A DNA stretch of 64,000 nt from Gammaproteobacteria bacterium. GTDB lineage: Bacteria > Pseudomonadota > Gammaproteobacteria > CBDBNL01 > JAAOII01. Of the stretch, positions 12,719 to 29,387 are shown one piece after another (within the stretch, counting starts at the first letter, position 1; each line of letters opens with the position of its first letter). The stretch is from positions 61,199 through 125,198 of the forward strand of contig OZ242303.1 of assembly GCA_965207945.1 (NCBI GenBank), read 5' to 3'. Made by a program: the position numbers and the translations under genes. Under the pieces are notes generated by a model. That model was not told where the DNA came from. It saw only the letters and a list, made by a program, of their open reading frames with translations, and made no database searches.

Positions 12719-12754
12719 ATTTAGTAATAATTAACCGAAGAGGAAATTAATAAC

Positions 12755-14071
12755 ATGTCAATTACATTACCTGTGATAAGAGGTCAAATGGGGATACATA
12801 CATATTATGTGGCTACAATGTCTGCACAAGATGCGACATTATTAATAAAAATGCCAAGCATTGTACCTGGCTGGAATTCTATTGAAGCTAGAGCTCAAAG
12901 AACGGTGGATTCTAAAAGAGTTGAGAAGGGGTTATATCCTTACTTAACTAATAAAAGTGCCGATAGATTTTTTGGCTCTTTAATAGTTGGAGTTCAATAT
13001 CTGGAAGAGGCGGATACTAGTAGTAAGATAGACAAAAAAAAGAAAAAAATTGTTTTTGAACCTATCGAAAAATATGGGGATTTACCCGTTGCATATGACC
13101 AACCAGCCGAAAGAATGGGAATATTAACTATAAAAGATAGTAGTATACTAGTAGTTCCTTATGATGGACAGCATAGGTTATTAGGATTAAGGTATGCTAT
13201 TGAAGGAAGAAAAAACACAGGGGATGAGATTCGTTCAGGAGAAAACAATCTCTCGGTGGCTAAGGATATAATTTCTGTTATTCTTCTTCCATATAGCGTA
13301 GGAACTTCCAGAAATATATTTACCAAACTTAATAGATATTCTAAGCCAACCAGTGCTACCCAGAATTATATCACCGATGATGATGACTCTATAGCGAGCA
13401 TAGCAAGAAAAATAACAAATACGGTTATTAACCAAAAGAGAGACGATATTGATTTAGTTAATTGGATAAGCAATTCTTTAAAGAAGAAGGATGGTTACTT
13501 CACCACACTTGATACGATTTACAAATGCACAAAGGCAATAATAGAAGAGATAGCGTCTAAAAAAATTCTAACAGGTGAAAGATTGAAGGATGAACTGGAG
13601 AGGAAATATTTTAAAGCAGCAAAGGATACTTGGGAGTTTTTATTAAAAGAGATAGATGAGTTTAAGGATGCTTTAAAGAATAGAACTAAAGCGGGTGATG
13701 AAAATAGAATGCAGATACGCGAATATTCGTTGCTTGGGAAGCCAGTGCCTCAGCAATGCATAGTAGAGGCATTTTTAAAAATTATAAGAGATAAAAAGAT
13801 ATCAAAGGAAGAGGCTGTTAAAAGGTTAAATAAAATACCCTGGGATATAGGAAATCCGCTATGGGATAGCATACTGTGGCAAGGAGATGGGGATACAGGA
13901 AAAATATTGACCAAAGGTAAAAAAATTGCCATTGATCTAGTATCTTACATGTGTGGGGCAACCATGACAACTGCTCAAGAAAGTAATCTATTAGCAAGAT
14001 ATGAGGCTTTATTATCACCTGATGATAATAGGAGGGGAAAGTTACCTAATAAGTTGAATAAACGCAGCTAG
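12755..14071 (+). CDS. DGQHR-domain protein, DndB-like (ParB/sulfiredoxin fold).
   Basis: The N-terminus LPVIRGQMGIHTYYVATM matches the DndB PAIRG…YY signature, and the eponymous YDGQHRLLGL motif is present. 438 aa. Confidence 0.8.
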   Translation: MSITLPVIRGQMGIHTYYVATMSAQDATLLIKMPSIVPGWNSIEARAQRTVDSKRVEKGLYPYLTNKSADRFFGSLIVGVQYLEEADTSSKIDKKKKKIVFEPIEKYGDLPVAYDQPAERMGILTIKDSSILVVPYDGQHRLLGLRYAIEGRKNTGDEIRSGENNLSVAKDIISVILLPYSVGTSRNIFTKLNRYSKPTSATQNYITDDDDSIASIARKITNTVINQKRDDIDLVNWISNSLKKKDGYFTTLDTIYKCTKAIIEEIASKKILTGERLKDELERKYFKAAKDTWEFLLKEIDEFKDALKNRTKAGDENRMQIREYSLLGKPVPQQCIVEAFLKIIRDKKISKEEAVKRLNKIPWDIGNPLWDSILWQGDGDTGKILTKGKKIAIDLVSYMCGATMTTAQESNLLARYEALLSPDDNRRGKLPNKLNKRS

Positions 14072-15243
14072 TGGTTAGATCACTTTCTGCTGCCGTCCCT
14101 GCTACAGATAACATAATAGCGACAAGTGCGGAATTCCTTAATCCTATTAGCTTAAAAGAAAAAATATCACGCATCCAAGCAGACATAGAGGAAGCCTATT
14201 TTGAGAAGACCTGTCCGTGGGTTATTGCTTATTCCGGAGGGAAGGACTCTACTATGGTACTTCAGTTGGTCTGTGAGTTCTTATTATCCTTGCCCAAAGA
14301 CAAGCATAATAAAGAAATCCATATAGTGTCAAATGATACTCGTGTGGAGTCGCCCGTTATATCACAACATTTAGATAAAAGCTTGGAGTTACTCAAAAAA
14401 TTTCAAAAAGAACACTCGCTACCTATCAAGGTGCAGAAAACAGTGCCAGCAGAGAATGATTCTTTTTGGGTGAATCTCATAGGGCGTGGTTACATACCAC
14501 CGACTAGAGTGTTTAGGTGGTGTACTAGCAAGATGAAAATAGAACCAACCAACAAGTACATTAAGAACTTCATAGATAGGAATGGTGAAGTAGTCCTTTT
14601 ATTAGGGGTAAGGACAAGTGAATCAACTTCGCGCGGAAGATCTATTAAGAAGCACACCAATGACGATGGGACTAGGTATAACCCTCATAGTATGATGCCG
14701 AAGTGCTTAATATATAGACCGATTATAGATATAGAGAATGAAGAAATATGGCAGTTACTGCTGCAACGTCCTTCCCTTTGGGGTGGAAATAATCGCGAGC
14801 TAATTACTATTTACAGAAATGCTGCTGGTGGAGAATGCCCTACAGTTCTGTCCGAAGACGATGCCCCTTCTTGTGGGTCGTCATCTGTTAGGTTTGGTTG
14901 CTGGACGTGCACCGTTATTAGCAAAGATAGGAGCTTGGGCGGCCTAGTAGATTCTGGACTTGATTATCTAGAACCCTACATGAATTTTAGAGATTGGTTA
15001 ATAGAATTAAGAGAAGATGATGGCAATAGAACACCCGTGCGTAGAAATGGCCGTTGGAAGAAAAAAGAAAATGGTTCTACGGTTAAGGGACCATTTTTAA
15101 TAAGTATTCGCAAGGAGATATATAGTAGATTACTTGAATTAGAGAAAGAAGTAGGAGAGAAATTAATTACTAAGAGCGAAATTTTCTTAATAGAAAGAAT
15201 CTGGCGCCAAGATGAGAAAAAAGCAATCTGGCCAGTAAATTAA
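14071..15243 (+). CDS. PAPS-reductase-family PP-loop ATP pyrophosphatase, DndC/SspD/IbrA-like, with a C-terminal Cys cluster.
   Basis: The PP-loop VIAYSGGKDST is present, together with Cys motifs ECPTV…SCGSS…RFGCWTCT. The GTG start overlaps the upstream stop (TAGTG), consistent with translational coupling. Confidence 0.8.
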   Translation: MVRSLSAAVPATDNIIATSAEFLNPISLKEKISRIQADIEEAYFEKTCPWVIAYSGGKDSTMVLQLVCEFLLSLPKDKHNKEIHIVSNDTRVESPVISQHLDKSLELLKKFQKEHSLPIKVQKTVPAENDSFWVNLIGRGYIPPTRVFRWCTSKMKIEPTNKYIKNFIDRNGEVVLLLGVRTSESTSRGRSIKKHTNDDGTRYNPHSMMPKCLIYRPIIDIENEEIWQLLLQRPSLWGGNNRELITIYRNAAGGECPTVLSEDDAPSCGSSSVRFGCWTCTVISKDRSLGGLVDSGLDYLEPYMNFRDWLIELREDDGNRTPVRRNGRWKKKENGSTVKGPFLISIRKEIYSRLLELEKEVGEKLITKSEIFLIERIWRQDEKKAIWPVN

Positions 15244-15254
15244 GTAGTGTTATA

Positions 15255-17000
15255 GTGAAGAAAAATCCTTTTTCTGCCAAAGCTCTACCACTGTATGAAC
15301 TCTTTAATGGCTTTATGGCGGAGCACAATATAGAGTCATTTCTCATTCCACAATATCAGAGGTTCTACTCATGGAAACCTAAGCATGTGAAGGACCTTTT
15401 ATCAGATATAGCTATGGCTATAACTGATAATGAAGATGGTTTTTTTTTAGGACCCATTCTATTATCTAATTCCCCAGAATCCCAGAAGAGTATTTCAATA
15501 GTTGATGGTCAGCAGAGGATAATAACCACGTCCCTAATTTTAGGGGCATTAATGCATCATGTTTATAACTTGAAACAAGAGAACAATGAAGTTGCTATGC
15601 GCTGCCTTTGGGATTTACCCAAAGAACTCACAGATATAGCCCATATATCACCTGGCAATATACCAACTAAACTAAGCTTTTCTTTAGAAAATGATGATAC
15701 TTCTTATCAGCTGATGATATGTGATAATCAGGCATATATTTCAGGACCTATTAAAAAAGCTTATGAAAGTATAAATGCATTTTTTGCTGGGTACTCTTAT
15801 GAAGATACTTGTAAGTATATCAATTATCTCACTAATAAGGTGTTCTTTGTGGCAATAAAACCAGATGAACATGTCAAGCAAATAAACAAGATATTTGAAA
15901 CATTGAATGATAGAGGGATGCCTCTTAATCAAATAGAGTTATTTAAGAACTTTGCACTTAGTTATTTTAGCCCCCGTGACAAGAAATTTGATTTATTTGA
16001 AAAACTATACATGTGGCTAAATACTGTGGATTCTGTTGAAAGATATTTGGCTGTATATTCTATGCTGCACTATGATTATAAGACAGTTAAGCGTGAGAAA
16101 AATTTATACAGGTTATGGAAAAATAGAATCTATGAATATCCAAAGTCCGAGAGGAAGAGTCAAATGCGTATTATTCTTGATGACCTCTCATCCTCTCTTG
16201 AATATTACCAGGCGATCTCCAAAGAGGGCAGTTCGCTTTGGATGACAAGGTATAAAGGTGCAGCAATGAATGATGACAGAATGCTTGCTATGATTCAATT
16301 TTTGAGTAAATACAAAATTACTCATCCTATTCTTTTTGCTATAGTTAAAAGAGAACCTGGCTATAAGGTTTTGAAAAGCTGCTATCATATAATTTATTCC
16401 CTTTTAGCTAGAGTGTGGTTAATTCACTCTCTATCACGGGCTGGCAATTTGGAGGAAATATTAACCACTGTAGCATTAGGTATAAATAAGAAAGAAATTG
16501 AACTATCTCCTGATAATCTATATAAGAATATAGTTAAACAAGCTGGATCTCACTATACAGATATAACGGATGATAAACTATTTAGTACCAAGTTGGGCGT
16601 TATAGAATATCCAGGAAATGTGGATCCCCGCACTAAATTCATATTTACTGAGATAGTTAACTCAAATCAAAAAGAGATTAAGATTATGAAGGAAGATACC
16701 CTCAAGGTATCCCATGTATTGCCTAGGGATGAAGGGGAGCTCTCCGATTGGGGTGGCTTCCCTTTAGCGGATTACCTTACAAGCCGCCATAAATTAGGAA
16801 ACATGGTTTTATTAAATGGAGAAGCCCCTCGGGTTGTTAATAGTCAATCTTTTAAAGAAAAGAAAAAGATCTTTGCGGAATCTGATTTTGATATAACTAA
16901 AAATATATCTTTGGTGCATAATTGGGGTCCACAAGAGATCCAACAAAAGCAAAAAGAATACGCCCAGCAAATCACCCAAATACTTTCATTGCCCTCTTAA
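15255..17000 (+). CDS. DUF262 + DUF1524 protein (GmrSD/SspE-like putative modification-dependent or modification-sensing nuclease).
   Basis: The N-terminal DUF262 signature is IPQYQRFYSW…VDGQQRI. The C-terminal DUF1524 His-Me motif is VSHVLPRDEG…GN(M)VLLN. 581 aa, with a GTG start. Confidence 0.8.
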   Translation: MKKNPFSAKALPLYELFNGFMAEHNIESFLIPQYQRFYSWKPKHVKDLLSDIAMAITDNEDGFFLGPILLSNSPESQKSISIVDGQQRIITTSLILGALMHHVYNLKQENNEVAMRCLWDLPKELTDIAHISPGNIPTKLSFSLENDDTSYQLMICDNQAYISGPIKKAYESINAFFAGYSYEDTCKYINYLTNKVFFVAIKPDEHVKQINKIFETLNDRGMPLNQIELFKNFALSYFSPRDKKFDLFEKLYMWLNTVDSVERYLAVYSMLHYDYKTVKREKNLYRLWKNRIYEYPKSERKSQMRIILDDLSSSLEYYQAISKEGSSLWMTRYKGAAMNDDRMLAMIQFLSKYKITHPILFAIVKREPGYKVLKSCYHIIYSLLARVWLIHSLSRAGNLEEILTTVALGINKKEIELSPDNLYKNIVKQAGSHYTDITDDKLFSTKLGVIEYPGNVDPRTKFIFTEIVNSNQKEIKIMKEDTLKVSHVLPRDEGELSDWGGFPLADYLTSRHKLGNMVLLNGEAPRVVNSQSFKEKKKIFAESDFDITKNISLVHNWGPQEIQQKQKEYAQQITQILSLPS

Positions 17001-17158
17001 CTGTCATTATCTCTCAGCCAGTATAAATTATTCTGGCTTATAATTCTATAATACCTTTTATACAATTTACCCAATAATAATGCAGGCATACAACCTCCAC
17101 ACCATACCCCCCCAACCTCACCATCTTGCAATCCCAACATATAATATAATCCATATAT

Positions 17159-18226
17159 ATGAAAGATAAGATTAAGGTAGCTATTTATGGAGCTTCGGGT
17201 TATACCAGTTCGGAGTTGTTGCGGTTGCTTGAGCAGCATCCGAATGTGCAGGTTTGCGCGGTGGTGTCGCACTCGCAAGTTGGTAAGTGTTTGGGTGCGT
17301 TGCATCCCCATCTTGGTGAGGAGCTTGGCGCTATGGAGGCGATTTCTGCCGAGCAGGTTCCTGATTGTGATTGTGTATTTTTTGCTACGCCAGCGTGTGT
17401 TGCAATTAAGGAGGCGGGTAGGTTGTTAGATAAGGGGGTAAAAGTTATAGATTTGTCGCCCGATTTTCGGATTAAGGATGCCAAGTTATGGCAGCAGTGG
17501 TACGCAAAGGAGCATGGCGCGACTGATTTATTGGCAGAGGCGGTGTATGGTTTGCCTGAGGCGAATCGCGCTGCCATTAAGAAGGCGCGGCTTATTGCTA
17601 ATCCAGGTTGCTATGCAACTACGGTGCAGTTGGCATTGTTGCCGTCATTGCTATCCGCTAAGCATGGTGGGCAACTTGCAGGTAAGGAGTTAGTCGTGGA
17701 TGCCAAGTCCGGCGTTAGTGGGGCGGGTAAGAATCTGGCAACCGATCTTTTATTGGGTGAGGCGGGAGAGGATTTTACCTGCTATTCAGCGGAAGGGCAT
17801 AGGCATCAGCCAGAGATGGAGGAGTCATTACAAGAAAAGAGTGGAGTAAATGTGAAGCTACGTTTTGTTCCTCATTTATTGCCGCTGGTGCGTGGAATTT
17901 TTGTGGATATATATTTACCGCTTGGCAGTGGAAGTGATAACAATCCAGCTGCTGATGAATTAAGAAGCGTGTATAGTAAGTTTTATGCCGCCGAGCCGTT
18001 TGTGAAAGTATTGGCTAAGGGGCAGGCACCACATATTAAACATACTCGCGGGAGCAATCATTGTCATTTAGCTGTTTTCGCTGCTCCTGGTTCTACTTAT
18101 ATACAGGTGTGTGGAGTTTTGGATAACTTGGTTAAGGGGGCGTCTGGTCAGGCGATCCAGAATATGAATATTATTTTTGGTTTGGATGAGAAGGAGGGGC
18201 TGCAGCAGGCAGCGTTGACGCCTTAG
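17159..18226 (+). CDS. argC: N-acetyl-gamma-glutamyl-phosphate reductase.
   Basis: IAIYGASGYTSSELLRLLEQHP at the N-terminus and the catalytic-Cys region NPGCYAT. Confidence 0.9.
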   Translation: MKDKIKVAIYGASGYTSSELLRLLEQHPNVQVCAVVSHSQVGKCLGALHPHLGEELGAMEAISAEQVPDCDCVFFATPACVAIKEAGRLLDKGVKVIDLSPDFRIKDAKLWQQWYAKEHGATDLLAEAVYGLPEANRAAIKKARLIANPGCYATTVQLALLPSLLSAKHGGQLAGKELVVDAKSGVSGAGKNLATDLLLGEAGEDFTCYSAEGHRHQPEMEESLQEKSGVNVKLRFVPHLLPLVRGIFVDIYLPLGSGSDNNPAADELRSVYSKFYAAEPFVKVLAKGQAPHIKHTRGSNHCHLAVFAAPGSTYIQVCGVLDNLVKGASGQAIQNMNIIFGLDEKEGLQQAALTP

Positions 18227-18232
18227 TAAAGT

Positions 18233-19099
18233 TTAGGGGGTATTGTTAGTCATGCGGGCTACTTTAAAAAGCTTACCATCTTCCAGTCGTTTGGCTGCTA
18301 AGTGTAGTCCCCAAGCACAGCCATAATCCATCGCCAGCATTTTTGCTTGGTTGGTTACGCCGCGGATAGCAGCCCAATGTCCAAAGACAATCAGCGTCTT
18401 TTCTTTTCTGGGATAGTCAAACCATGCTGCGCAGTTGGCGGGTGCTTCATTTGCTGCTCCTGCACTGCTCAGTTCCATCTTACCTTCGGCAGTGCAGAAG
18501 CGCATGCGGGTTAGGTAGTTGATAATTACCCTTAGGCGTTCACTTTCGTTGGATACCTCATCCATAGAAGAGGGCTGGTTGCCATATAGACCGCTCATTA
18601 GTTTTTGCATAGCAATTTGTTGTGTGGGGGCAGAACCAGAGGCATAAGTGCTTTGTAGTTGCTGCTCAGCATATCTGGCAAATCTCGCTGCTTGCTCTAT
18701 GCTCCAAATATGGGGTATTCCAGCATGCACCAAAACATAGTCATCTTGCTTGTTCCAATATAACAGCGATTGATGCAGCAGCCATTCAATTATTTGTTGG
18801 GCATCGCTGGCATCTATAATTTGGTTTAGGGTTGTATCTTGGTTTTTATCTCTGTCGTAGCCGCCAAAGTAAAGGGCGATTAGGTGCAGGTCGTGATTGC
18901 CAAGGACAACTTTCACCTCGGGATTTTCTTGCTGTAAGGAACGGACTAAGTGCACTGTTTTATATGCCTCGCTGCCACGCCCCACTAAGTCGCCAGTGAA
19001 TAGAAGTTTGTCTTGGTTCGGTTGATAGGATATAGCATCAAGCATTTTTGCTAGTTCATCATAGCAGCCATGCACATCGCCAATAAAATAAGATGCCAT
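18233..19099 (-). CDS. apaH: Bis(5'-nucleosyl)-tetraphosphatase (symmetrical).
   Basis: FIGDVHGCYDEL…TGDLVGRG…LGNHDLHL are the ApaH metallophosphatase motifs. Confidence 0.9.
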   Translation of the reverse strand: MASYFIGDVHGCYDELAKMLDAISYQPNQDKLLFTGDLVGRGSEAYKTVHLVRSLQQENPEVKVVLGNHDLHLIALYFGGYDRDKNQDTTLNQIIDASDAQQIIEWLLHQSLLYWNKQDDYVLVHAGIPHIWSIEQAARFARYAEQQLQSTYASGSAPTQQIAMQKLMSGLYGNQPSSMDEVSNESERLRVIINYLTRMRFCTAEGKMELSSAGAANEAPANCAAWFDYPRKEKTLIVFGHWAAIRGVTNQAKMLAMDYGCAWGLHLAAKRLEDGKLFKVARMTNNTP

Positions 19100-19132
19100 G
19101 CTGGATTAACTCCAGCTTTTGTTAGTCATTGA

Positions 19133-19519
19133 TTAATTGATAATTCGCGGTATAGAGAGCGTGAATTTTTTGATCGGAACATTAAATTCCATGCCATCCG
19201 AGCTGCGCATAATGTATTCGCCTTCCATGGTTCCCATCTCGGTATCCAACATTATTCCACTGGTATATGCAAACGAATGATTGGGTTCAATAACGGGCTT
19301 CTTGCCCACCACGCCTTCTCCTTCAACTTCGTGTGATTCGTTGTTGCCATCGGTCACTGTCCACTTACGTCCCACCAGCTGTATATTGTCATCGCACAAG
19401 TTTGTTATGCCGATGGTATATAAGAAGACATAACGATTCTCATTTGGGTTGGATTTTTTTCCATCATATTTTGTGAATATCTCTATTCGCAAAGCTTCGT
19501 CGTCGTGTTTAGAATTCAT
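19133..19519 (-). CDS. apaG: ApaG (DUF525) protein.
   Basis: NENRYVFLYTIGITN…EVEGEGVVGKKPVIEP…YTSG corresponds closely to E. coli ApaG. It sits in the conserved rsmA-apaG-apaH context. Confidence 0.85.
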   Translation of the reverse strand: MNSKHDDEALRIEIFTKYDGKKSNPNENRYVFLYTIGITNLCDDNIQLVGRKWTVTDGNNESHEVEGEGVVGKKPVIEPNHSFAYTSGIMLDTEMGTMEGEYIMRSSDGMEFNVPIKKFTLSIPRIIN

Positions 19520-19577
19520 AACGCTTATTTAAGGTTGTTTAGGTATTATACAAGACATCTGCGTATTTATGCATACT

Positions 19578-20549
19578 TTAACTTAGCGCTCGCATTATGC
19601 TGATGAAGTCAGCGAGGGATGTTTGTTTGGCGCGTTTTTCTGCAAGGTTTAGGTGGTGCAGGGTTTCTTGCTGGTGTAATTCTTTAATGGTATTACGCAG
19701 ATGGCGGTTAGGGCGGGAGAAGGCGGAAGTTATGATACCATTGAGTGTGCGTATTTCTTGCGGGCTAGTTATACTTTCGTATAGGCATGGTGTTAGACGA
19801 ACAAAGGAAGACATTACTTTAGGTGGGGGGACAAAAGAACGGGGCGGTAAGTCAAACAACTTTTCACCCTGAGCCATGGTTTGGCGCATTAAGCTGAGAC
19901 GACAATAGTTGTCGCCGCCCACTGCGGCAAGTAATCTTTGCGCTATTTCTTTTTGCACCAAGAAGTGCATGTCTCTTACATTGATTGCCGCAGTGTTGTT
20001 TGCGGCGGAATTATTAACGCCATCATTGCTTGCGACACTTATCCTCTCGCTGCCGATGCCGAAGTGGGCGAGCAGAAGAAACCGTTCCATTAAGTGCACG
20101 CTGATGTTATAGGGTAAGTTGCCCACTATACGTATTTCTTTTGATTTCGTCTTCGCCCCTGCCTCTATCTTCGTCTCCGTCCCTACCTTTGCCCCTGCCT
20201 TATTGTCCTCGCCCTCACTCTCCCCAGGTAATCCAGCAAACGCATCATCAAGGTTATCCTTTAGAGCATCTGCATTAATGATAGTTAAGTTGTTTATATG
20301 GGAGGTCTTGTCGCGTAAGTTGGTTGCCAGCTGTTGGTCTATTTCTATGGCTGTTATATGCCGACACCTTTCGCTGAGCGGCAGAGTTAGAGCGCCATCA
20401 CCACATCCTATTTCTATAAAAACATCTTCCTTTTGAGGTGCGATTGCTTCAACCAATCTATCCAGCGCATTGGGGTTGCGTAGAAAGTGCTGCCCTAAGC
20501 TCTTGCGCGCTTTTGGCTGATTATTGTTTGCTTGCTTCTTCAATCTCAA
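19578..20549 (-). CDS. rsmA: 16S rRNA (adenine1518/1519-N6)-dimethyltransferase, carrying two low-complexity insertions.
   Basis: LGQHFL…IEIGCGDGALT…GNLPYNIS are the KsgA motifs. 323 aa against ~273 aa typical. The inserts are GLPGESEGEDNKAGAKVGTETKIEAGAKTKSKE and SNDGVNNSAANNTAAIN. Confidence 0.9.
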   Translation of the reverse strand: MRLKKQANNNQPKARKSLGQHFLRNPNALDRLVEAIAPQKEDVFIEIGCGDGALTLPLSERCRHITAIEIDQQLATNLRDKTSHINNLTIINADALKDNLDDAFAGLPGESEGEDNKAGAKVGTETKIEAGAKTKSKEIRIVGNLPYNISVHLMERFLLLAHFGIGSERISVASNDGVNNSAANNTAAINVRDMHFLVQKEIAQRLLAAVGGDNYCRLSLMRQTMAQGEKLFDLPPRSFVPPPKVMSSFVRLTPCLYESITSPQEIRTLNGIITSAFSRPNRHLRNTIKELHQQETLHHLNLAEKRAKQTSLADFISIMRALS

Positions 20550-20550
20550 T

Positions 20551-21807
20551 TTAGTTTTTATGTAATCTCAATGCCAGACGCACTGCATATTCCATGCTGC
20601 CACTATTTGCCTTGCCACTGCCTGCCAATGAGAATGCGGTGCCATGGTCAGGAGATAAACGTAAAAAGGGCAAACCAAAAGTTAACTGTGCCCCCTGGTT
20701 AAATGTTAATGCTTTGAATGGAGTAAGTCCCTGGTCGTGGAACATAGCGATGACGGCGTCATAGTGTGCGAGATTACCTACGGCAAATAACGAGTCCGCT
20801 GCCAATGGGTCGGATACATTTATACCTTCCCCTTGGAGACGGCGAGCTAAGGTCGTCATCCATTGTGCTTCTTCTTCACCAAGCAGCCCCTCTTCACCAG
20901 CATGAGGATTGAGCCCGCATAGCGCCAAGCGGGGAGGGGGCAGTGGGGATGGAGTAGAGGGGGCAGATGTAGAGGGTGATAGAGTAGAGGCGGGCGACGT
21001 GGCGAGGGATGATGCGGTGGCGGGCGATGTGCTGTCTGACGTTGGCGATTTACAACTAAAATACTTTTGCATAATTATGTTGGTGTCGCGGATAGTGCGT
21101 TCCACAAGTTCTGGGTTAAGCTTGTTAGCAATCTCACTCACAGGAATATGCATAGTGGCAAAGGTTACCCGTAACTCTTTATCGCTGCCTACATCATTGC
21201 CTGTATCATAGATCGCGCTGTTTAGTTTTCCGCAAAACATTCTAAGCATCGTTGTTGTCGCTTGAGTTGTTTGGAGTGCTTGATATTCTTGCGATGTAGC
21301 AGGCAAATCTTTTGGCGCAGTTGATAAAAGCGATAAATCTGATGAGCATGTCTCCTGTAAAAATTCACTGAGGCCGATGAAGGGGATGCTCTTGTTGATA
21401 AGCTGCTTGCTTACTGGGGCGGTAACCATTGTGGTGTATTCACGCTTCATGCATAACTGCACTGCTTGCTTAAGCATTCCCAGTAGATAGGGATTATTTT
21501 CTGCATCTGGCTTTCCAGGAGTTACTTCTTTATTGAGTGGCAGATGGATAAAACGGAAGTCGGTATCATTTGTTCTGGCAGTTGTGCTGCCGTTCGTGCT
21601 GCCAGCCATCCCAGATGCCTTGCTTTCCACCTGACTATTTTCCACCCGCTTAAAAGAGACCTTCAGCCCTAATGACTCTGCTCTTTCAGATAGCATATCA
21701 CCATCGCCCATGAACACCAAATCCTGCCGTAGTTCAGATGGCAGCATAAGGCATATATCAGGACCTATACCGGCGGGTTCTCCTGTGGGGATTAGTATTT
21801 CTTGCAT
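20551..21807 (-). CDS. pdxA: 4-hydroxythreonine-4-phosphate dehydrogenase, with a Ser/Thr/Pro-rich insertion.
   Basis: PAGIGPDI…LCGLNPHAGE…DHGTAF are the PdxA motifs. 418 aa against ~330 aa. The insert TSDSTSPATASSLATSPASTLSPSTSAPSTPSPLPPP precedes the catalytic loop. Confidence 0.85.
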   Translation of the reverse strand: MQEILIPTGEPAGIGPDICLMLPSELRQDLVFMGDGDMLSERAESLGLKVSFKRVENSQVESKASGMAGSTNGSTTARTNDTDFRFIHLPLNKEVTPGKPDAENNPYLLGMLKQAVQLCMKREYTTMVTAPVSKQLINKSIPFIGLSEFLQETCSSDLSLLSTAPKDLPATSQEYQALQTTQATTTMLRMFCGKLNSAIYDTGNDVGSDKELRVTFATMHIPVSEIANKLNPELVERTIRDTNIIMQKYFSCKSPTSDSTSPATASSLATSPASTLSPSTSAPSTPSPLPPPRLALCGLNPHAGEEGLLGEEEAQWMTTLARRLQGEGINVSDPLAADSLFAVGNLAHYDAVIAMFHDQGLTPFKALTFNQGAQLTFGLPFLRLSPDHGTAFSLAGSGKANSGSMEYAVRLALRLHKN

Positions 21808-21813
21808 CGTCTT

Positions 21814-22560
21814 CTAAAAATGATAATTAAATAGGGATATCTCCTTGGCGCAACTCCTTGCCACAATGTTTTTTTGCTCTTCATTGTATATATGTTGATA
21901 TTGTAACTTTTCCTTTTTGTTGCTGCGCTTAAGCTTTATGTTTAGTTTGCCACTAAATGGGATGCCAAGTTGTTGGCATACTGCGCCAAAATCATCATCC
22001 AATCTCTCAAATCTCATAACCTTGTCTGCTAATACTTTACCTGAGGCATCACTATAAAAAGAAAAGTCACTTATATATGGCGAGGTTACAGCGCTATGTT
22101 TTATAAACTCATCAAACAGCTCGGGGGATATATTATTGGGTAATTGCTGGTCTTTATTGTGATAACTCCAGCAGTAGCGAGATAGAAGCTTGTCCCAAGG
22201 ATTACGTTCACAACAGAACTTAAAATAACTATTCCAGATATTGCGAGGAATACAATGTTTAATGTCTCGTGCTCTTATATGGTTGAAAAAATTGCCATTA
22301 ATTATCTGCCTCCTTTGCGAGCCGCTAGGGTGATGTTGGATAGGATTTTGCCAGAAGGACATTTCACCGATTCGCAGAGGAAGACGCCACCAAGGGACGG
22401 TTCCCTCCCAATTGCGCGATAGGTCATACTCCGCAGAGGACTGCATGGGCGTTATTATGTCATCTGCGCCACAATGTTGCGCTAAATACGCCTCTATGCT
22501 GCTGCCAGCACACTTGCGTATCTTTATAAAGATGAACTTATGCTTATGTGAAATTATCAT
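21814..22560 (-). CDS. Putative sulfotransferase-family protein (Sulfotransfer_2-like).
   Basis: The N-terminus HKFIFIKIRKCAGSSIE resembles the 5'-phosphosulfate-binding loop (hIPKtgGTS) of carbohydrate sulfotransferases. It sits where surA would lie in the E. coli surA-pdxA-rsmA order, next to tRNA-Leu. Confidence 0.5.
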   Translation of the reverse strand: MIISHKHKFIFIKIRKCAGSSIEAYLAQHCGADDIITPMQSSAEYDLSRNWEGTVPWWRLPLRIGEMSFWQNPIQHHPSGSQRRQIINGNFFNHIRARDIKHCIPRNIWNSYFKFCCERNPWDKLLSRYCWSYHNKDQQLPNNISPELFDEFIKHSAVTSPYISDFSFYSDASGKVLADKVMRFERLDDDFGAVCQQLGIPFSGKLNIKLKRSNKKEKLQYQHIYNEEQKNIVARSCAKEISLFNYHF

Positions 22561-22589
22561 TTATATTGTTATTATAAACTCACTACAAA

Positions 22590-22672
22590 TACCGAGGGCG
22601 AGACTTGAACTCGCACTCCCAAAAGGAACTGGTTTTTGAGACCAGCGCGTCTACCGATTCCGCCACCCCGGC
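22590..22672 (-). tRNA. tRNA-Leu (anticodon CAA), class II with a long variable arm.
   Basis: The reverse complement reads GCCGGGGTGGCGGAATCGGTAGACGCGCTGGTCTCAAAACCAG…GCGAGTTCAAGTCTCGCCCTCGGTA. The anticodon loop is CTCAAAA and the T-arm is GCGAG-TTCAAGT-CTCGC. Confidence 0.8.
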
Positions 22673-23015
22673 TAAAGATGTTGTAGCCCATTATAGCATA
22701 ATCATAAAGGAGGAATACTTGCTTCCTAACGCTTGCATGCACTTATATAGTGGCTTTTAATCAGAAAAATCTCTAAAAATCTTGGAAAAAGCAAAAAATT
22801 AATTATTAATATGCGTTAATAAAGTTAACCTGTGTTATACTTGTAATGTTGTGTTTATTTATTTTGTTGCAACGGGAAATTTAGTGAGAAGTTTAGTGAG
22901 AGATTTGTTATGTTAGTAGTAATGTCGGCAATAAAAACTATGGTCTTCGGATTATGGAGCCGAACAGACCTGGACGAAAGTCCAGGGGTTCAGTCATCGG
23001 ATGCATCTTATTTAT

Positions 23016-24079
23016 GGAGGCATCCGATGACCTTTTTGAAGATTCCAGTTTTATGGACAGGAATCTCACAAACCCAGCAAACCCAGCAAATTAAGTCAAG
23101 CTACTTCAAAGGATTAGTCACTGCCTTTTTAGTAATAGGGCTAACAGCGTCTTTTATGCCGCAGCAGGGGCAAGCAGATGACCTTGACTTTAAGAAAGAG
23201 CGGGGTAAGAATTATGAAGTGATCACGTCCATTGCTCAGCTAGGTGAACCCCTCGCACATATAACGGAGAGCTGTGTTTATGTAAAGAGCCTACTGGGTA
23301 GTGGAACGGATCCTCATTTATATCGTCTTAGTAGAGCCGATGTTCGAAAAATGCATCGCTCTGAGATGGTTCTGTATGTTGGCCATTTATTGGAAGCACA
23401 GATGAAACCATTTCTGCATTTATTATCAATTACCAAACCAGTTCATCCAGTGGGAGAGTTAATAAATCCTAATCTGATGATGGAAGTAGAGCCAGGTATA
23501 CATGACCCTCACCTATGGATGGATCCTGTTTTATGGAGCGAGGTATTACAAGTCGCAATTAATATTATTATCAATCAGTATCCGGCATGTAAAGAAACTA
23601 TAATGGCAAGGGCTAATACGTATTTTTACGAATTGGGGGTGCTCCATGAAAAAACTGAAAAAATATTTCACTTAGTCCCTAAAGAGAAGAGAATATTAGT
23701 TACTTCCCATGATGCTTTTGGTTATTTTGGTGCCCGCTTTGGGATTAAGGTTTTAGCGATTCAAGGGATATCCACTGATAGGCAGATTAGTATCAATAAA
23801 ATAAATTCTTTGGTTGATTCTTTAATTGAATATAACATTAAAAGCGTATTTGTGGAAAGCTCGGTTAGTTCGCGTGATATTCTTGCAGTTATTGAAGGAG
23901 CGGCAAGCAGGGGGCATGAAATAAAAATAGGAGGGACTCTGTATTCTGATGCTATGGGAGAAAGCGGAACTTTGGAAGGAACTTATATGGGTATGTTGGA
24001 ACATAATATACGAACTATTGCAACAGCTTGGGGAGTGGATACTTCCATTTTAGATTCAGTAGCTTTAGACAGCTTATAA
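23016..24079 (+). CDS. Metal (Mn/Zn) ABC transporter substrate-binding protein, TroA/ZnuA family. The ORF is open from 22910, but 23016 is the likely start.
   Basis: The HDPHLWMDP metal-binding-region motif is present. A GGAGG Shine-Dalgarno lies 6 nt before the ATG at 23016, and a signal-peptide-like KGLVTAFLVIGLTASF segment follows. Confidence 0.75.
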
Positions 24080-24117
24080 CCCCTGCACAGGAGGCATCAC
24101 TGGAGGCATCGCAATAG

Positions 24118-24840
24118 ATGAAAGCAAGTAACACGAACATCATTGAGTGTAGCGGCTTGTCAGTTTTTTATGGTAAAAAACAAGTATTGGGAACGTTAAA
24201 CTGTAATTTAAAGCGTGGGGTTAAGATAGGCATTTTGGGACCCAATGGGGCGGGGAAAAGTACATTTCTTAAAGCGATAGTTGGTCTCATTCCGTATAAA
24301 GGAAAGATAATTAAAAACTGTTCATCTTTGGTGTATACTGCGCAACGTCAAGAAATAGATTGGGACTTTCCAGTAACTTGCCGTGATGTAGCTCAAATGG
24401 GATTGTATCGTAACATTGGTTGGTTTAAAAAAGTAACACGTCAGCATAAGGATAAAGCACTTGAAGCATTGAAAGATGTAGGTATGGAGAATTACGCAGA
24501 CACCCCTATAAGCGACCTTTCTGTAGGGCAGCAACAGCGTATCTTTTTAGCGCGCGCTATGGTGGATGATAATGCCGACCTATTTCTTTTTGATGAACCC
24601 TTAGCAGGGGTTGATATGAAAACTGAGCGGGTAATTCAAAACCTGTTCAACCGCCTGATTAAACAAGGCAAGAGTATTCTATGTATTCATCATGACTTAT
24701 ATAGTGCTGCAGTTCATTTTGATTATGGAATACTACTTAATAGCAAGTTGATAGCCAGTGGTCCCATTAACAAGGTTTTATCTGCGACTAACTTACGTCG
24801 CGCTTATGGCAGCGGTATTGTCATTCCTAAATTGCGCTAA
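24118..24840 (+). CDS. Metal ABC transporter ATP-binding protein.
   Basis: Walker A GPNGAGKST, signature LSVGQQQR and Walker B LFLFDEP. Confidence 0.85.
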   Translation: MKASNTNIIECSGLSVFYGKKQVLGTLNCNLKRGVKIGILGPNGAGKSTFLKAIVGLIPYKGKIIKNCSSLVYTAQRQEIDWDFPVTCRDVAQMGLYRNIGWFKKVTRQHKDKALEALKDVGMENYADTPISDLSVGQQQRIFLARAMVDDNADLFLFDEPLAGVDMKTERVIQNLFNRLIKQGKSILCIHHDLYSAAVHFDYGILLNSKLIASGPINKVLSATNLRRAYGSGIVIPKLR

Positions 24841-25745
24841 TGTTTTCTATAGATTATAATTTTCAAGAATTCACCTCAGCCCTATTATTTTCATATTCAT
24901 ATAATTCTGCCGTAGTATCCAGCGCGGTCATGATGCAGGGTATTGCGTCTGGTATTTTAGGTGCCTACTTATTATATAGACGTAAAGCGTTGTTGGCAGA
25001 TGCGCTAAGTCATGCATCTCTTCCAGGTGTTGGCTTGGGTTTCTTGGTGGCGCATTTCTTCTTGGGGGGTACTCGCGAGGAATGGGTAATTATTGCAGGA
25101 GCTTTCGTTACTATTTTTATATGTCTAATTTTCATTAATTTCTTAACCCGTCATATAAAACAGGATGCCGCCTTAGCTCTTTCCCTCAGTAGCTTCTATG
25201 GCTTGGGGATAGTGTTGCTTAGTTATATCCAAAGCATTCCCAGTGGCGCCAAAGCCGGTTTGGAAACATTTATTTTAGGACAGAGCGCCACAATCAATTT
25301 AGCAGAAGCGCAGCTTATTGGCTTGGGTGCTTTGGTAGTGGTGCTAATGTGCGTTCTTTTTTATAAAGAATTACAATTGTTATGTTTTGATGAAATATTT
25401 GCCTTGTCTCAGGGCTACAGAGTTCGGCTGTTAGATTTTGTAATAACCCTGCTGGCAGTTATTGTTATAGCGATCGGAATGAAGGCGATGGGTTTAATTC
25501 TTATTATGGGGTTATTAACTATTCCACCTTTAACCTCGGCTTTGATATTTAAGAACTGGCATACTTTCTTAATTAGCTCAGCCACCATAGGCGGGTTGAG
25601 CTGTCATTTAGGAGCTGCAATAAGTACTGGGCTGGAGGGCATTCCCACTGGGGTGTCAATAATATTGGTGTGCGCTTTTTTCTATATCATTGGCTTATTA
25701 TGGTCGTTTAATAAAAATGTCATTCACAGATTTTTGGCTAATTGA
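24840..25745 (+). CDS. Metal ABC transporter permease (ABC-3 family, TroC/ZnuB-like).
   Basis: A multi-transmembrane protein with a typical ABC-3 N-terminus (…LADALSHASLPGV). Its start overlaps the upstream stop as TAATG. Confidence 0.85.
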   Translation: MFSIDYNFQEFTSALLFSYSYNSAVVSSAVMMQGIASGILGAYLLYRRKALLADALSHASLPGVGLGFLVAHFFLGGTREEWVIIAGAFVTIFICLIFINFLTRHIKQDAALALSLSSFYGLGIVLLSYIQSIPSGAKAGLETFILGQSATINLAEAQLIGLGALVVVLMCVLFYKELQLLCFDEIFALSQGYRVRLLDFVITLLAVIVIAIGMKAMGLILIMGLLTIPPLTSALIFKNWHTFLISSATIGGLSCHLGAAISTGLEGIPTGVSIILVCAFFYIIGLLWSFNKNVIHRFLAN

Positions 25746-26634
25746 TTTTGCCCCTTTGCTTGCTGCTATTCTTAGCGGAATTTGCTGCGCTTTATGCGGC
25801 AATTTTTTGTTAGTGCGGGGGCATAGTATGACGGTGGACGCGCTTTCTCACATGGTATTGCCAGGGATGGTTGTTGCATTTTTTATTGCTGGAAGCATCT
25901 CTTTTTTCTATATGTTTTGGGGGGCATTGGCTGCGGCGCTTATCGGCATTATTCTCATTGAGCTGTTAAGCCGCATTCAAGATAGAAACGCAGTTATGGG
26001 CATGATATTTAGTGTGATGTTTGCTATGGGTATTTTGTTACTAGAACTTTTTGTTGACCGCAGAGTTCACTTTGATGTAACTCATATTCTATTTGGCAGT
26101 TTAGAATCAGTTTATTGGGTTGGTTTAGGAACGCCTGATATAGGCGTATGGGATCTGCTTGGGTACATCCCGTCTTCTATTGCGGTGCTTATCTTTCTTG
26201 TTGGGTTAATATCTTTATTGATAATATTATTTTATAAAGAGTTATTGTTAGTATGCTTTGACTATGAATTTGCGCGCTGCACTATTAAAGGAGCTCGTTT
26301 AATTTATTATGCCATCCCTATTATAATTACGATGACTGTAGTAGGTGCCTTTAGATTAGTGGGATTAATATTAATTGTGGGAATGTTTATAATCCCGCCG
26401 CTTATTGCTTCTTTATTTGCGAAATCCATAGTGTCGCGCATATTTATTAGTTGCTTGCTCTCGGTGGTGTTATGCATAGCAGGTTATAGCATAGCGGTTT
26501 ATGTTCCCATTTATATGCTCAATGAGGGCTTTAGCTTAAATGTTGGAGGGACTATTGTTACTACAGGAGGGGTATTATTATTTTTAATGCTTTTGTGTAA
26601 GCAATTATTTATTACGACAACAAAAACGACTTAG
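25717..26634 (+). CDS. Second metal ABC transporter permease (ABC-3 family, TroD-like). The ORF is open from a TTG at 25690; the ATG at 25717 is preferred.
   Basis: It is paralogous to the upstream permease (…VDALSHMVLPGM…) and overlaps it by 29 nt. Confidence 0.8.
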   Translation: MSFTDFWLIDFAPLLAAILSGICCALCGNFLLVRGHSMTVDALSHMVLPGMVVAFFIAGSISFFYMFWGALAAALIGIILIELLSRIQDRNAVMGMIFSVMFAMGILLLELFVDRRVHFDVTHILFGSLESVYWVGLGTPDIGVWDLLGYIPSSIAVLIFLVGLISLLIILFYKELLLVCFDYEFARCTIKGARLIYYAIPIIITMTVVGAFRLVGLILIVGMFIIPPLIASLFAKSIVSRIFISCLLSVVLCIAGYSIAVYVPIYMLNEGFSLNVGGTIVTTGGVLLFLMLLCKQLFITTTKTT

Positions 26635-26650
26635 TTGGAATTCTTGCGAC

Positions 26651-27067
26651 TCAGTTTGAATTATAACGGGTAAACTTTTCCAGGCAGCTCAGGGATTCTT
26701 CACTGAGATAATGCTCAAGTCCTTCGGCATCCTGCTCTGCATTTTCCTTGCTTACCCCTAATGATAATAAAAACTTAACTACCAGTTCATGACGTTTGGC
26801 GCACTTTTCTGCCAACTCTTGCCCCTCATCAGTTAAGAAAACGGAGCGATAAGGGTCGGAGCGAACCAGCCCTTCTTTCTTTAAACGAGCAACCGCTCCA
26901 TTAACTGCTGATTGAGAAACACCAAAAGCAGTAGCCAAATCAGTTGAACGCGCTTCACCTTTTTCTGCAATTAAAGATGCAATCATTTCTACATAGTCCT
27001 CTTGCAATTCTTTACTTTGTGCCTCGCGGGTCTTGTTAAATCTAAGATATGTTTTATCTTGTTCCAT
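26651..27067 (-). CDS. DtxR/MntR-family metal-dependent transcriptional regulator.
   Basis: 138 aa with an N-terminal winged helix-turn-helix (IASLIAEKGEARSTDLATAFGVSQSAVNGAVARL) and a C-terminal metal-binding/dimerisation helix region. It is divergent from the adjacent metal importer operon. Confidence 0.8.
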   Translation of the reverse strand: MEQDKTYLRFNKTREAQSKELQEDYVEMIASLIAEKGEARSTDLATAFGVSQSAVNGAVARLKKEGLVRSDPYRSVFLTDEGQELAEKCAKRHELVVKFLLSLGVSKENAEQDAEGLEHYLSEESLSCLEKFTRYNSN

Positions 27068-27102
27068 AATAGCTTTTTATATTATAAGGCATTGGTAGTG
27101 CG

Positions 27103-29001
27103 TTACAAATCGGAATTAAAGAAACCCGAGTCAGGATTTAGTGCCCGCCAATTTACGCTATGCGAATCCATTACTTTCCGCAGAACATCAGAATTTGAAT
27201 CCTGTTCGTAAGCAGTTAACCAGATATACTTAGCTCTTTGAATCTTATTCTGACTCCATGACACCTCGCCAAGATGCGCGGCAATCTCAGCGTCTTGTTT
27301 TTGTCTGTATGCCCATTGCAGTAGGTCCTCTGCCTTTTGCAGTTCCCCTTTACGAAAATACCACCAACCCAAGCTATCAACATAAGCGGGGCTGATGGGG
27401 TTTGCTTCAATAGCATCATCTATTAATTTCTTTGCCTTATCAAGCTGGATATTTTTGTCGGTTAATGAATAGCCATAACTATTCTTTATCGCATGACTTT
27501 GACCGCTGACACTCATTGCCTTATCAAATTGCTTTTTCATTGCTGAAATCTGGTTTATTTCGTAATACATAAATGCGGATGACTGGATTAAATCCTCATC
27601 AAGCGGAATTCTATTATTAGCGGTTTTCATAATAGCTCCCGCCTCTTTAACATAGCCACGTTTGCCTAGTTCATTAGCATATCTGCCGGTAAGGAATACA
27701 TATTCTCGGCGGCTATAGCTAAGAACTTCTTCCAGCAACGACTCTCCAGCACTAAAGTCCTTAGTGTTTATAGAGTTTTTTAATCTAAGCCATAACGCAT
27801 TGTATGAAAAATCGGATGAGGTTGAGACCCTGCTTAGAAACTCTTCCGCGAGCACTTCATTTCTGCCTGCCAAAGCAACCATGCCCATCCTAAAAGATGA
27901 CTCATTTTTATCCGGTAAATTTTGCAGATAAGTTGCTGATTTACGAAATAAATCTTCCATGCCTTGTTTTTGCGCTCCCATAGTTAAAAAGAGTATAGTA
28001 TTTGTTTCTTTTGCTGGGATTAATTTTTTCTCTAACATTTGAATCAATATTTTTTCTGCTTTCTCTTCTTCTTGTTGATTAATCAAATATAAGGCATAGT
28101 AGATTTGCAACGGATAGGACTCAGGGTTTTCTCTTATGGATTTTACATAAAACGGTTCGCCATTGCTTCTTTTAGTTAAGTAATAAATACGCCCCTTGAG
28201 TTCTATAACCTGTTGCATCAAACGCACATTGTTGTTAGATTTATTAGAGTCAATAATTAGGTTTAGTAGCTGTAAGGACTTATCATGCTGTTCTTGGTAA
28301 AAAAGAAAATGAGCTAAACGATAATAGGCGATTTCTAACCCCGCGCGCAAGTTATTTTTTGCTTCGGGGTATATGTTCATATAGCGGATATATGTCCTAA
28401 TTAAATCTCTTGCCTGCTCTTCATCTAATAATTGGTAGAAGTTGGCGATGGGTCTGAAATCGCTAGTTCTTCCTTGTTCAATTCGCTGTGCCATTAACTC
28501 AAAGGCGAGTTTATAGTTGGAATTTGTAATTAGTTCTTTGATATAGCTGCTTTGGGCTGCCGATGATTGAGGGTCAATCTCATACCACAGCTTTGCAGTT
28601 TCCCTTGATATATCAGAATTGTATAAAAATACGGAAAGGTCATAAGCCCGTTGGGCAATTTCAGGGTCGTTATAGGTTTTAGCATATTTAAGCATTCCTT
28701 CAACGGACTCTGTTTTATCGGGGTTTCTTTGCGCGCTTATCTCCAGACGAAGAATTTCACCTAAATCAAAAGAAGGGGGTTCCTCCTCTATAATTCCTGG
28801 CGAGGCGCTTGCAGCCCCAAATCCTTTTATGCTTTTTCCTGCTTCTTCCACCCCCAAATCTACTCCGTAGCTACGGGTTTTACTTTTTTTGTGAACTCTA
28901 CTTTCTTCAAAGCCAGGAGTGGAAACCCGTGAAGAATTATTAATAGTGGCGCAGGAAAGTAATAGTAGAGATAAAACTATTAACGTAAATATTTTTATCA
29001 T
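27103..29001 (-). CDS. TPR-repeat lipoprotein (632 aa) in the LapB/YciM genomic position, but lacking a rubredoxin-like Cys domain.
   Basis: A lipoprotein signal (LLLSC) is followed by many TPR-like helical repeats. There are no C-terminal CxxC pairs. Confidence 0.55.
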   Translation of the reverse strand: MIKIFTLIVLSLLLLSCATINNSSRVSTPGFEESRVHKKSKTRSYGVDLGVEEAGKSIKGFGAASASPGIIEEEPPSFDLGEILRLEISAQRNPDKTESVEGMLKYAKTYNDPEIAQRAYDLSVFLYNSDISRETAKLWYEIDPQSSAAQSSYIKELITNSNYKLAFELMAQRIEQGRTSDFRPIANFYQLLDEEQARDLIRTYIRYMNIYPEAKNNLRAGLEIAYYRLAHFLFYQEQHDKSLQLLNLIIDSNKSNNNVRLMQQVIELKGRIYYLTKRSNGEPFYVKSIRENPESYPLQIYYALYLINQQEEEKAEKILIQMLEKKLIPAKETNTILFLTMGAQKQGMEDLFRKSATYLQNLPDKNESSFRMGMVALAGRNEVLAEEFLSRVSTSSDFSYNALWLRLKNSINTKDFSAGESLLEEVLSYSRREYVFLTGRYANELGKRGYVKEAGAIMKTANNRIPLDEDLIQSSAFMYYEINQISAMKKQFDKAMSVSGQSHAIKNSYGYSLTDKNIQLDKAKKLIDDAIEANPISPAYVDSLGWWYFRKGELQKAEDLLQWAYRQKQDAEIAAHLGEVSWSQNKIQRAKYIWLTAYEQDSNSDVLRKVMDSHSVNWRALNPDSGFFNSDL

Positions 29002-29273
29002 TTATCTGCCTGTTCTTTTATCAAGCTCTTACTTTTACTGTTTCTTTGTTTGGACTTTCCGATGATTGTTAGAGATGCTATAAACCCAAGGATAAAACCA
29101 CATAAAAGTAGCATAATGCTTAGCAGCCCTAAATTTATTTGAGGTATTTGTAAGAAGATTAAATCAAACTTTACAAGTTGTTGATTATGCAGAGCAAAGT
29201 ATATTCCTAAGAATATAAATAACAAGCAAATGATTAGCTTGGCTATAAATACAGGTCCTGATAAAAATTTCAT
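28998..29273 (-). CDS. lapA: LapA/YciS-like small inner-membrane protein (DUF1049).
   Basis: 91 aa with two transmembrane helices and the segment ALHNQQLVKFDLIFLQ between them, analogous to the LapA AQNDQQVTFNYLL segment. It lies immediately downstream of rpsA. Confidence 0.55.
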   Translation of the reverse strand: MKFLSGPVFIAKLIICLLFIFLGIYFALHNQQLVKFDLIFLQIPQINLGLLSIMLLLCGFILGFIASLTIIGKSKQRNSKSKSLIKEQADK

Positions 29274-29372: not shown

Positions 29373-29387
29373 AATGGCGTCTGTCAT

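Follow-up and report, generated by a model that had tools for sequence, protein, structure and literature searches.

We analysed a 64,000-nucleotide stretch of a gammaproteobacterial genome assembly (GenBank GCA_965207945.1, contig OZ242303.1, positions 61,199 to 125,198 of the forward strand), which we refer to as the window. Our subject is the interval 19578-21807 of this window, which holds exactly two genes, rsmA (ksgA) and pdxA, and the low-complexity inserts that both genes encode. The two genes lie in a longer run (17159-32081) that starts with argC and continues with a minus-strand group in the order sulfotransferase-pdxA-rsmA-apaG-apaH. These are followed by znuA-znuC and two znuB-like ABC-3 permease genes, named znuB1 and znuB2 here, a gene for an MntR-like regulator, and lapB-lapA-rpsA-cmk.

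Low-complexity inserts in RsmA and PdxA

The rsmA coding sequence (19578-20549, minus strand) is an open reading frame (ORF) for 323 amino acids (aa) when read from the TTG at 20549; in relatives the protein was called from the next TTG, which is equivalent to 321 aa here. The product belongs to the RrnaAD family (PF00398; E = 5e-53), scoring 180 bits against a cut-off of 24. Its AlphaFold2 model has the two-domain KsgA fold, with Foldseek template modelling (TM) scores of 0.90-0.91, normalised to the target, against the KsgA structures 3tqs and 1qyr. The S-adenosylmethionine-binding motif I (GxGxG) and the catalytic NLPY motif are both present, and residues E46, G48, G50 and N144-L145-P146-Y147, which are invariant in a 106-sequence alignment, are retained. 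Motif I (aa 46-52, window ~20400-20415) reads EIGCGDG throughout this clade and GSGDG in L055, a more distant relative; the near-invariant Pro49 of this motif, found in at least 90% of the 106 RsmA sequences, is Cys in this clade.

When RsmA was aligned to the solved structures of Coxiella and E. coli KsgA (3tqs, 7afo), three blocks matched. This left ~36 residues without a counterpart between 99 and 136 and ~34 between 156 and 191. A preliminary description of this DNA, made from its sequence alone, had proposed two inserts in RsmA, and both are borne out. Insert 1 (aa 106-137, GLPGESEGEDNKAGAKVGTETKIEAGAKTKSK; 20139-20234, minus strand) is rich in Gly, Glu, Lys and Ala, and insert 2 (aa 166-190; 19980-20054, minus strand) is rich in Asn, Ala and Ser; neither is found in solved KsgA structures. 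Codon-level alignment resolved insert 1 into a run of imperfect 18-bp units (GGG GCG GAG ACG AAG GTA) of the type GGGGCGGAGACGAAGGTA. No DNA periodicity was detectable in insert 2 in this genome.

The pdxA coding sequence (20551-21807, minus strand) encodes 418 aa. The protein is a member of the PdxA family (PF04166; E = 6e-74; 249 bits, cut-off 27), with the match split into two stretches by inserts, and its model has the PdxA fold (Foldseek E = 2e-32 and TM 0.87 against 1yxo; 0.85-0.87 for its structure matches overall, again normalised to the target). Residues H220, N300, P301, H302, G304, E305, H357, D358, Q359, D387, H388, G389 and T390, which show no variation across 119 aligned sequences, are all present. 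These form a conserved His and the NPHAGE, HDQG and DHGT motifs, which we take, from E. coli PdxA, to be metal or substrate ligands. Comparison with Pseudomonas and E. coli PdxA (1yxo, 1ps6) again gave three aligned blocks, with a 13-residue gap opposite 66-78, ~55 unmatched residues between 154 and 210, and ~46 between 243 and 290; the surplus of PdxA over these structures thus falls at about 60-82, 155-209 and 244-289.

The preliminary description had placed a single Ser/Thr/Pro-rich insert of ~40 aa in PdxA. That insert exists (insert 4; aa 252-291; 20935-21054, minus strand), but it is one of four variable sites. Insert 1 (aa 57-82, NSQVESKASGMAGSTNGSTTARTNDT; 21562-21639, minus strand) lies in a 34-column insertion/deletion (indel) block in which relatives show (QVESS)n copies. 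Insert 2 (aa 155-187; 21247-21345, minus strand) is rich in Ser, Thr, Gln, Ala and Leu and lies in a 30-column indel block; no DNA periodicity was detectable in it in this genome. Site 3 (aa 199-210; 21178-21213, minus strand) falls in an 8-column indel block, where the window carries a short allele and relatives add DSGSGIGG. Insert 4 is a Ser/Thr/Pro/Ala tract that is absent from solved PdxA structures and corresponds to a 33-column indel block, with 0-39 extra residues among relatives.

Insert 4 stands out by composition. Ser, Thr, Pro and Ala make up 34 of the 39 residues at 253-291 against a background of 0.247 (binomial P = 3e-16, or 4e-12 when corrected for all windows). Composition is less distinctive in the remaining tracts (corrected P of 0.01 to 0.3), which we defined as inserts by alignment rather than by composition. 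Insert 4 had also been described as encoded by GC-rich imperfect repeats, citing a DNA string that is the plus strand at ~20985-21030. Its GC content is indeed 0.62 versus 0.47 in the rest of the gene, but the periodicity is weak: Tandem Repeats Finder (TRF) reported a 15-bp period at 20945-20990 (3.1 copies, 75% matches, score 53), corresponding to STLSP/STSAP/STPSP. We rejected an origin as GC-rich foreign DNA, as codon position 2 (0.88) accounts for most of the GC excess and third-position GC is just 0.53 versus 0.44. The excess therefore reflects the Ser, Thr, Pro and Ala codons of the insert.

Length polymorphism among close relatives

We compared the DNA of the window with that of six close relatives (L001 and L050-L054), giving seven genomes in total. 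L001 is a chromosome of 2.06 Mb that bears the label 'Gammaproteobacteria bacterium'; one European Nucleotide Archive (ENA) sample is the source of L050, L052, L053 and L054, and another that of L051. Across the seven genomes, which share 92-98% nucleotide identity, PdxA varies from 358 to 435 aa and RsmA from 303 to 342 aa. A wider clade of nine PdxA proteins (74-100% identity) has lengths of 352, 358, 385, 388, 392, 402, 410, 418 and 435 aa. RsmA orthologues span 298-342 aa overall and 298-338 aa at 83-87% identity; ordinary RsmA proteins have 250-270 aa. The flanks of the inserts are ~95% identical, and the length differences in PdxA and RsmA all fall within the flagged tracts and, with the exception of L050 rsmA, are all in frame. 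In L050 (11316-12420 of that contig, whose name implies 10x coverage), rsmA has frameshifts and a stop within an even longer Asn/Ala-rich insert 2, which is either an assembly or sequencing error or a genuine pseudogene.

Individual inserts come and go between these genomes. A 29-aa block of RsmA insert 1 is missing in L051, L052 and L054, L001 has one 18-bp unit more, and L053 has a shorter version whose deletion is flanked by two GGGGCRAAG repeats. For RsmA insert 2, close relatives show length differences of up to 25 aa. L001 and L054 lack PdxA insert 1, and L050 and L053 have expanded versions of it. Of PdxA insert 2, L052 and L054 have only a part and L050 has a longer version, while L001, L051 and L053 have none. 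Although their DNA is 98.3% identical, L050 and L053 differ in that only L050 has this insert.

The polymorphism extends beyond these two proteins. Of 13 orthologous genes, six vary in length (argC, apaH, rsmA, pdxA, znuA and rpsA), and no indels were found among the seven genomes in ApaG, the sulfotransferase, ZnuC, ZnuB1, MntR, LapA and LapB. The comparison of znuB2 with L052 was left out of these counts, as a paralogue was picked because the contig ends there. Genome pairs that share 95-98% nucleotide identity have 4-9 in-frame indel events between them over the 13 genes, which add up to 39-97 residues; L050 and L053, from the same sample, differ by 4 events and 39 aa. Insert turnover is recent, and the tracts are young and unstable.

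The preliminary description had taken the inserts for recent expansions rather than old lineage-specific domains, and this stands. In these regions, close relatives share neither the same length nor a conserved sequence free of repeats: lengths vary within the tracts, where PdxA and RsmA are 0.72-0.77 identical versus 0.95-0.96 outside. Further away, L055 and P0011, which keep the same gene order, have inserts at these PdxA loops as well, unrelated to those of this clade, and the RsmA insert of L055 sits at another loop than in this clade. No insert sequence is conserved across the wider lineage.

Indel rate, constraint and low-complexity content

For a control, we ran six Psychrobacter loci of similar GC content, around the same gene, through one pipeline with the clade. 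In-frame indel events per nucleotide substitution amounted to 0.010-0.022 in the clade versus 0-0.003 in Psychrobacter, so that, per substitution, indels are 5-10 times as frequent as in the control. A Psychrobacter pair at ~95% identity showed zero indels. In a crude entropy scan, low-complexity residues made up 6.4% of the window ORFs of at least 150 aa, compared with 1.4% in the Psychrobacter loci.

Over PdxA, RsmA, RpsA and ArgC, mean pairwise aa identity is 0.72-0.81 in the variable zones versus 0.95-0.99 outside them. The nonsynonymous substitution rate (dN) is 0.159 inside the inserts versus 0.027 outside, which is about six times faster, and its ratio to the synonymous rate (dN/dS) is 0.44 versus 0.15. 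Judged by these substitution patterns, the inserts appear to be weakly constrained, with the reading frame kept except in L050 rsmA.

Structural setting of the inserts

The AlphaFold2 models have a mean predicted local distance difference test score (pLDDT) of 85 for PdxA and 87 for RsmA, and most core blocks exceed 90. By comparison, the insert tracts score 46-67 and are modelled as coil between secondary-structure elements. In RsmA, pLDDT is 51-53 for insert 1 and 52-63 for insert 2, with low zones at 111-130 and 171-190 (51-63). In PdxA, the values are 53-54 for insert 1, 56-72 for insert 2, 66 for site 3 and 46-56 for insert 4. The low-confidence zones of PdxA span 61-80, 201-210 and 251-280 (46-67) and 161-190 (56-72), and they are mostly coil apart from one modelled helix at 172-182.

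In the model of PdxA, helix 232-249 precedes insert 4 and strand 293-297 follows it. RsmA inserts 1 and 2 adjoin strands 137-144 and 189-199, respectively, each insert being N-terminal to its strand. Each of the three therefore adjoins the N-terminal end of a strand that bears a catalytic motif at its C-terminal end. In alpha/beta folds, strand N-terminal ends usually face away from the active site, and by this rule the three inserts would point away from it. PdxA insert 4 had been described as next to the active-site loop. This is correct in sequence, where the insert ends 9 residues N-terminal of the NPHAGE motif, but in the model the insert probably lies on the opposite face. The catalytic cores of both models look intact, and RsmA and PdxA presumably retain their catalytic function.

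A Pfam search found no extra domain in either protein. We also considered an intein or other self-removing intervening sequence. The inserts are 12-46 aa long, of low complexity and without an additional Pfam match, whereas a Hint/splicing domain has at least 130 aa, and we rejected this candidate.

Similar tracts in other genes of the window

The preliminary description had listed RpoD, RpsA and PurL as further cases, and each of them does carry an expansion. PurL contains a 45-bp tandem repeat of 3.6 copies ((LLQTDTYKNTGADNS)n; 8737-8899, minus strand; TRF score 256, 89% matches), which accounts for ~50 residues without a counterpart between 830 and 834 of 1t3t. The repeat originates at the native 'LLQTD', which aligns with residues 826-830 of the E. 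coli protein. Among the tracts of the window it is the most clearly young one, as its repeats are still recognisable. In RpsA, an acidic low-complexity tail block, (EAK)n (aa 553-608; 29571-29738, minus strand), includes a TRF repeat at 29667-29696 of period 9 and 100% matches; a 44-aa block is missing in L001, L050 and L053, and L051 and L054 differ by a 3-aa EAK copy.

RpoD (4454-7117, plus strand) has 887 aa, with a histone-H1-like extension of ~250 aa ahead of region 1.1. Region 1.1 starts at about residue 261 and region 1.2 at 379, compared with 8 and 94 in 7xya. The entropy scan delimited a Lys/Ala/Ser/Pro/Thr-rich tract within this N-terminal extension (aa 53-254; 4610-5215, plus strand). 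RpoD also has an acidic tract at residues 332-348, and an ORF of 282 aa on the opposite strand (4363-5211), probably spurious, overlaps its low-complexity part.

Shorter tracts occur in ZnuA and ArgC. ZnuA has a 9-bp (QTQ)n repeat (23069-23090, plus strand; TRF period 9, 2.4 copies, 100% matches), with one to five QTQ/QTR units across the seven genomes. ArgC has a variable Gly/Asp/Asn-rich site (aa 255-268; 17921-17962, plus strand), at which the window carries a short allele. L001, L050 and L053 have a 14-aa block there and L051 has 7 aa of the same block. An HGA duplication also occurs in ArgC.

Source lineage and other features of the window

The organism has a GC content of 42%, and an Rfam scan of the window found two tRNAs only and no rRNA. 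PdxA is 100% identical to database protein P0001, carried on a 1.86-Mb contig, and the close relatives sit on contigs or chromosomes of 1.8-2.2 Mb. L055, with a PdxA 47% identical and conserved gene order, lies on a contig labelled 'sponge.metagenome', and a further syntenic relative at 38% identity has small inserts only. The nearest named proteins, from assorted Gamma- and Betaproteobacteria, are only ~32-35% identical, and therefore the lineage is deep-branching. The preliminary description had considered the insert pattern more typical of some intracellular or eukaryote-associated organisms; genomes of ~2 Mb and the sponge link would fit association with a eukaryote, but are no more than suggestive. 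Our literature search found nothing specific on this lineage, on the sponge run, or on low-complexity inserts in bacterial housekeeping genes.

Directly upstream of pdxA lies a gene for a Sulfotransfer_2 protein (21814-22560, minus strand, 248 aa), which is indel-free in every relative. The sulfotransferase-pdxA arrangement is kept as far as L055 and the Logan contigs L056 and L057. In E. coli the corresponding operon is surA-pdxA-ksgA-apaG-apaH, with surA in the slot that the sulfotransferase has here.

Between purL and argC, an island of low GC content (0.33-0.36; 11500-17100) encodes DndB-like, phosphoadenosine phosphosulfate (PAPS) reductase-like and GmrSD proteins. The same slot holds Cas12a in L051, a Csx12-type Cas9 with Cas1 in L050, Cas9-Cas1-Cas2 in L053, and nothing recognisable in L054. 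This slot is a strain-variable defence island.

A region at 40451-64000 looks like an expanded surface-lipoprotein family. It opens with a protein with fn3 and GLUG matches (40451-42352), followed by seven tandem paralogous ORFs of 850-1231 aa (42638-62678, plus strand). Pfam detected GLUG motifs in the 1231-aa ORF and no match in the 850-aa ORF, which are the first two of the array. In the later paralogues, the N-terminus carries a lipobox-like 'FSGCSSS' motif and short 15-bp repeats. A partial ORF after the array contains (EEKPPK)n, a 15-bp repeat of ~16 copies (62831-63082). Finally, a 751-aa ORF (32074-34329, minus strand) fuses TyrA (prephenate dehydrogenase) to AroA (5-enolpyruvylshikimate-3-phosphate synthase), and the joint is a Ser/Lys-rich low-complexity linker (aa 288-308).

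Discussion

We put at about 80% the probability that slippage generated the inserts as low-complexity regions under weak constraint, and that they are tolerated because they fall in permissive predicted loops of RsmA and PdxA, which are otherwise normal. Unit-by-unit change of repeats is the hallmark of replication slippage or unequal recombination, after which mutations erode the repeats. The tracts share the features of coding variable number tandem repeats (VNTRs): length polymorphism is in frame and localised to the tracts, constraint is relaxed relative to the flanks, and short-period DNA repeats are clear in RsmA insert 1, PurL, RpsA and ZnuA and weak in PdxA insert 4. The inserts would arise and turn over as short coding repeats of 9-45 bp are duplicated in tandem or deleted, by replication slippage or by unequal recombination between imperfect direct repeats, with slippage the likely molecular event. 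Later point mutations would blur these repeats into compositionally biased tracts. The host sites would be loops between secondary-structure elements, mostly at strand N-terminal ends, where extra residues should spare the catalytic core. Selection would keep only the reading frame and a soluble composition, and because of this, alleles of very different length could coexist in near-identical strains. The propensity to form inserts would be lineage-wide, and tolerance of the inserts would stem from relaxed selection or small population size.

Several points weigh against this account. The synonymous rate (dS) is itself higher inside the inserts than outside (0.365 versus 0.180), where repeat alignment is ambiguous and misaligned repeats inflate it. 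For PdxA insert 2 and RsmA insert 2, neither of which is detectably periodic here, slippage would have to be read from the relatives. Translation of the inserts is likewise suggested by conservation of the frame. Recombination between strains, rather than repeated independent events, could be behind part of the patchy presence and absence. The elevated rate may have its cause in a repair defect or in small population size, both of which are possible, and the control to which this rate was compared represents a single genus and a single locus. Lastly, dN/dS inside the inserts is below 1 and each tract's compositional class is kept across relatives, so that some selection on the tracts is possible.

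The last two observations would also be expected if the inserts are selected, functional disordered segments, such as solubility tags, spacers, interaction or condensate regions or modification sites, whose length variation is adaptive. The same can be said of the reading frame, which is always kept apart from L050 rsmA, and of the PdxA loops, which carry inserts in relatives at 43-47% identity as well. However, a repeat origin alone also predicts retained composition, and strains with 95-98% identity differ by the presence of entire inserts (RsmA insert 1 and PdxA inserts 1, 2 and 4), which argues against a required role. Sequence conservation of the inserts is also lacking in the wider lineage, and the hosts are cytosolic enzymes that would have no obvious need for such segments. 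We therefore consider a selected function unlikely. Insertion sites common to the lineage might alternatively mark old, structured lineage-specific domains. The lengths and sequences of the inserts differ among close relatives, however, model confidence is low with no regular secondary structure in most tracts, and no additional Pfam domain is present; the polymorphism and the disordered models leave this idea hardly any credibility, and we excluded it.

Small selfish elements that insert in frame offer another possible source. Rickettsia palindromic elements, reportedly described by Ogata and colleagues in 2000, are a dispersed palindromic family that adds extra peptides at tolerated positions of essential proteins in a host-associated bacterium. 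The inserts studied here are superficially alike, being in frame, in loops of essential proteins, and in a small-genome lineage with a sponge-metagenome relative. In a short-word blastn search, however, none of eight insert DNAs had a second copy in the 64-kb window, with chance matches of 11-20 nt only, and the inserts share no sequence with one another. Single-strand DNA folding of the five RsmA and PdxA inserts gave no hairpin excess over shuffled sequence (z of +1.4 to -1.7), and length variants are set apart by the gain or loss of repeat units, not of whole elements. The inserts are unlike the Rickettsia elements in being single-copy in the window, mutually unrelated and not palindromic, and we rejected a dispersed mobile element as highly improbable. 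An artefact of long-read metagenome assembly or gene calling might be suspected from the low coverage of several relatives (contig names imply 3x-10x) and from the frameshifts within insert 2 of L050 rsmA. Yet independent assemblies and samples, with megabase-scale contigs among them, repeatedly contain insert-bearing, in-frame alleles, which makes an artefact very unlikely. Every other variant is in frame and free of stops, the flanks align perfectly, and clean indels of 6-44 codons are not a product of assembly errors, so we give almost no weight to this explanation.

Slippage-generated, tolerated tracts have precedents elsewhere. Core enzymes with low-complexity inserts are a textbook feature of Plasmodium and certain other eukaryotes but are uncommon in bacteria, whose proteomes usually carry few such tracts. 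The low-complexity regions of Plasmodium falciparum housekeeping proteins are disordered, lie in loops, vary in length between isolates, have been attributed to slippage and are mostly regarded as near-neutral (PMC3140889). The tracts reported here are similar in being biased and disordered, in loops of conserved enzymes, and length-variable between strains. They differ in occurring in a bacterium of 42% GC, and in being rich in Ser/Thr/Pro/Ala, Gly/Glu/Lys or Asn/Ala rather than mostly poly-Asn. For Ehrlichia ruminantium, another host-associated bacterium, a passage of PMC10710844, citing Collins et al. 2005, describes tandem repeats that expand and contract between strains and target non-coding regions. 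Set against that passage, strain-variable tandem repeats are shared, whereas the repeats here lie in frame inside essential coding sequences. Bacterial coding VNTRs, as used in multiple-locus VNTR analysis (MLVA) typing, vary in copy number in frame between strains and serve as strain markers. They usually occur in surface or contingency genes, few per genome, whereas 6 of 13 neighbouring core genes are affected here, including those for PdxA, RsmA, RpsA and ArgC. The tracts thus represent a known kind of feature in a new bacterial case of unusual density, and not a new mechanism.

These tracts account for the odd lengths and split domain matches of the proteins that carry them, and they caution against calling such segments new domains. 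Whole inserts differ between genomes that are 95-98% identical, which makes them demonstrably young. They are ready markers for several strains that co-occur in one sample, and they pose a question about the mutation and repair biases of this lineage and the strength of selection in it. Tentatively, and with considerable doubt, we suggest that in-frame gain and loss of tandem repeats may be heritably elevated, for example through lost or altered mismatch repair or a slippage-prone replisome, and that together with weak selection this may have given rise to a 'Plasmodium-like' bacterial proteome. If so, a large share of the essential enzymes would carry strain-specific disordered tracts, and these would be markers that resolve co-existing symbiont strains in one host. 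The lineage would then be a natural system in which to watch low-complexity regions arise in bacteria.

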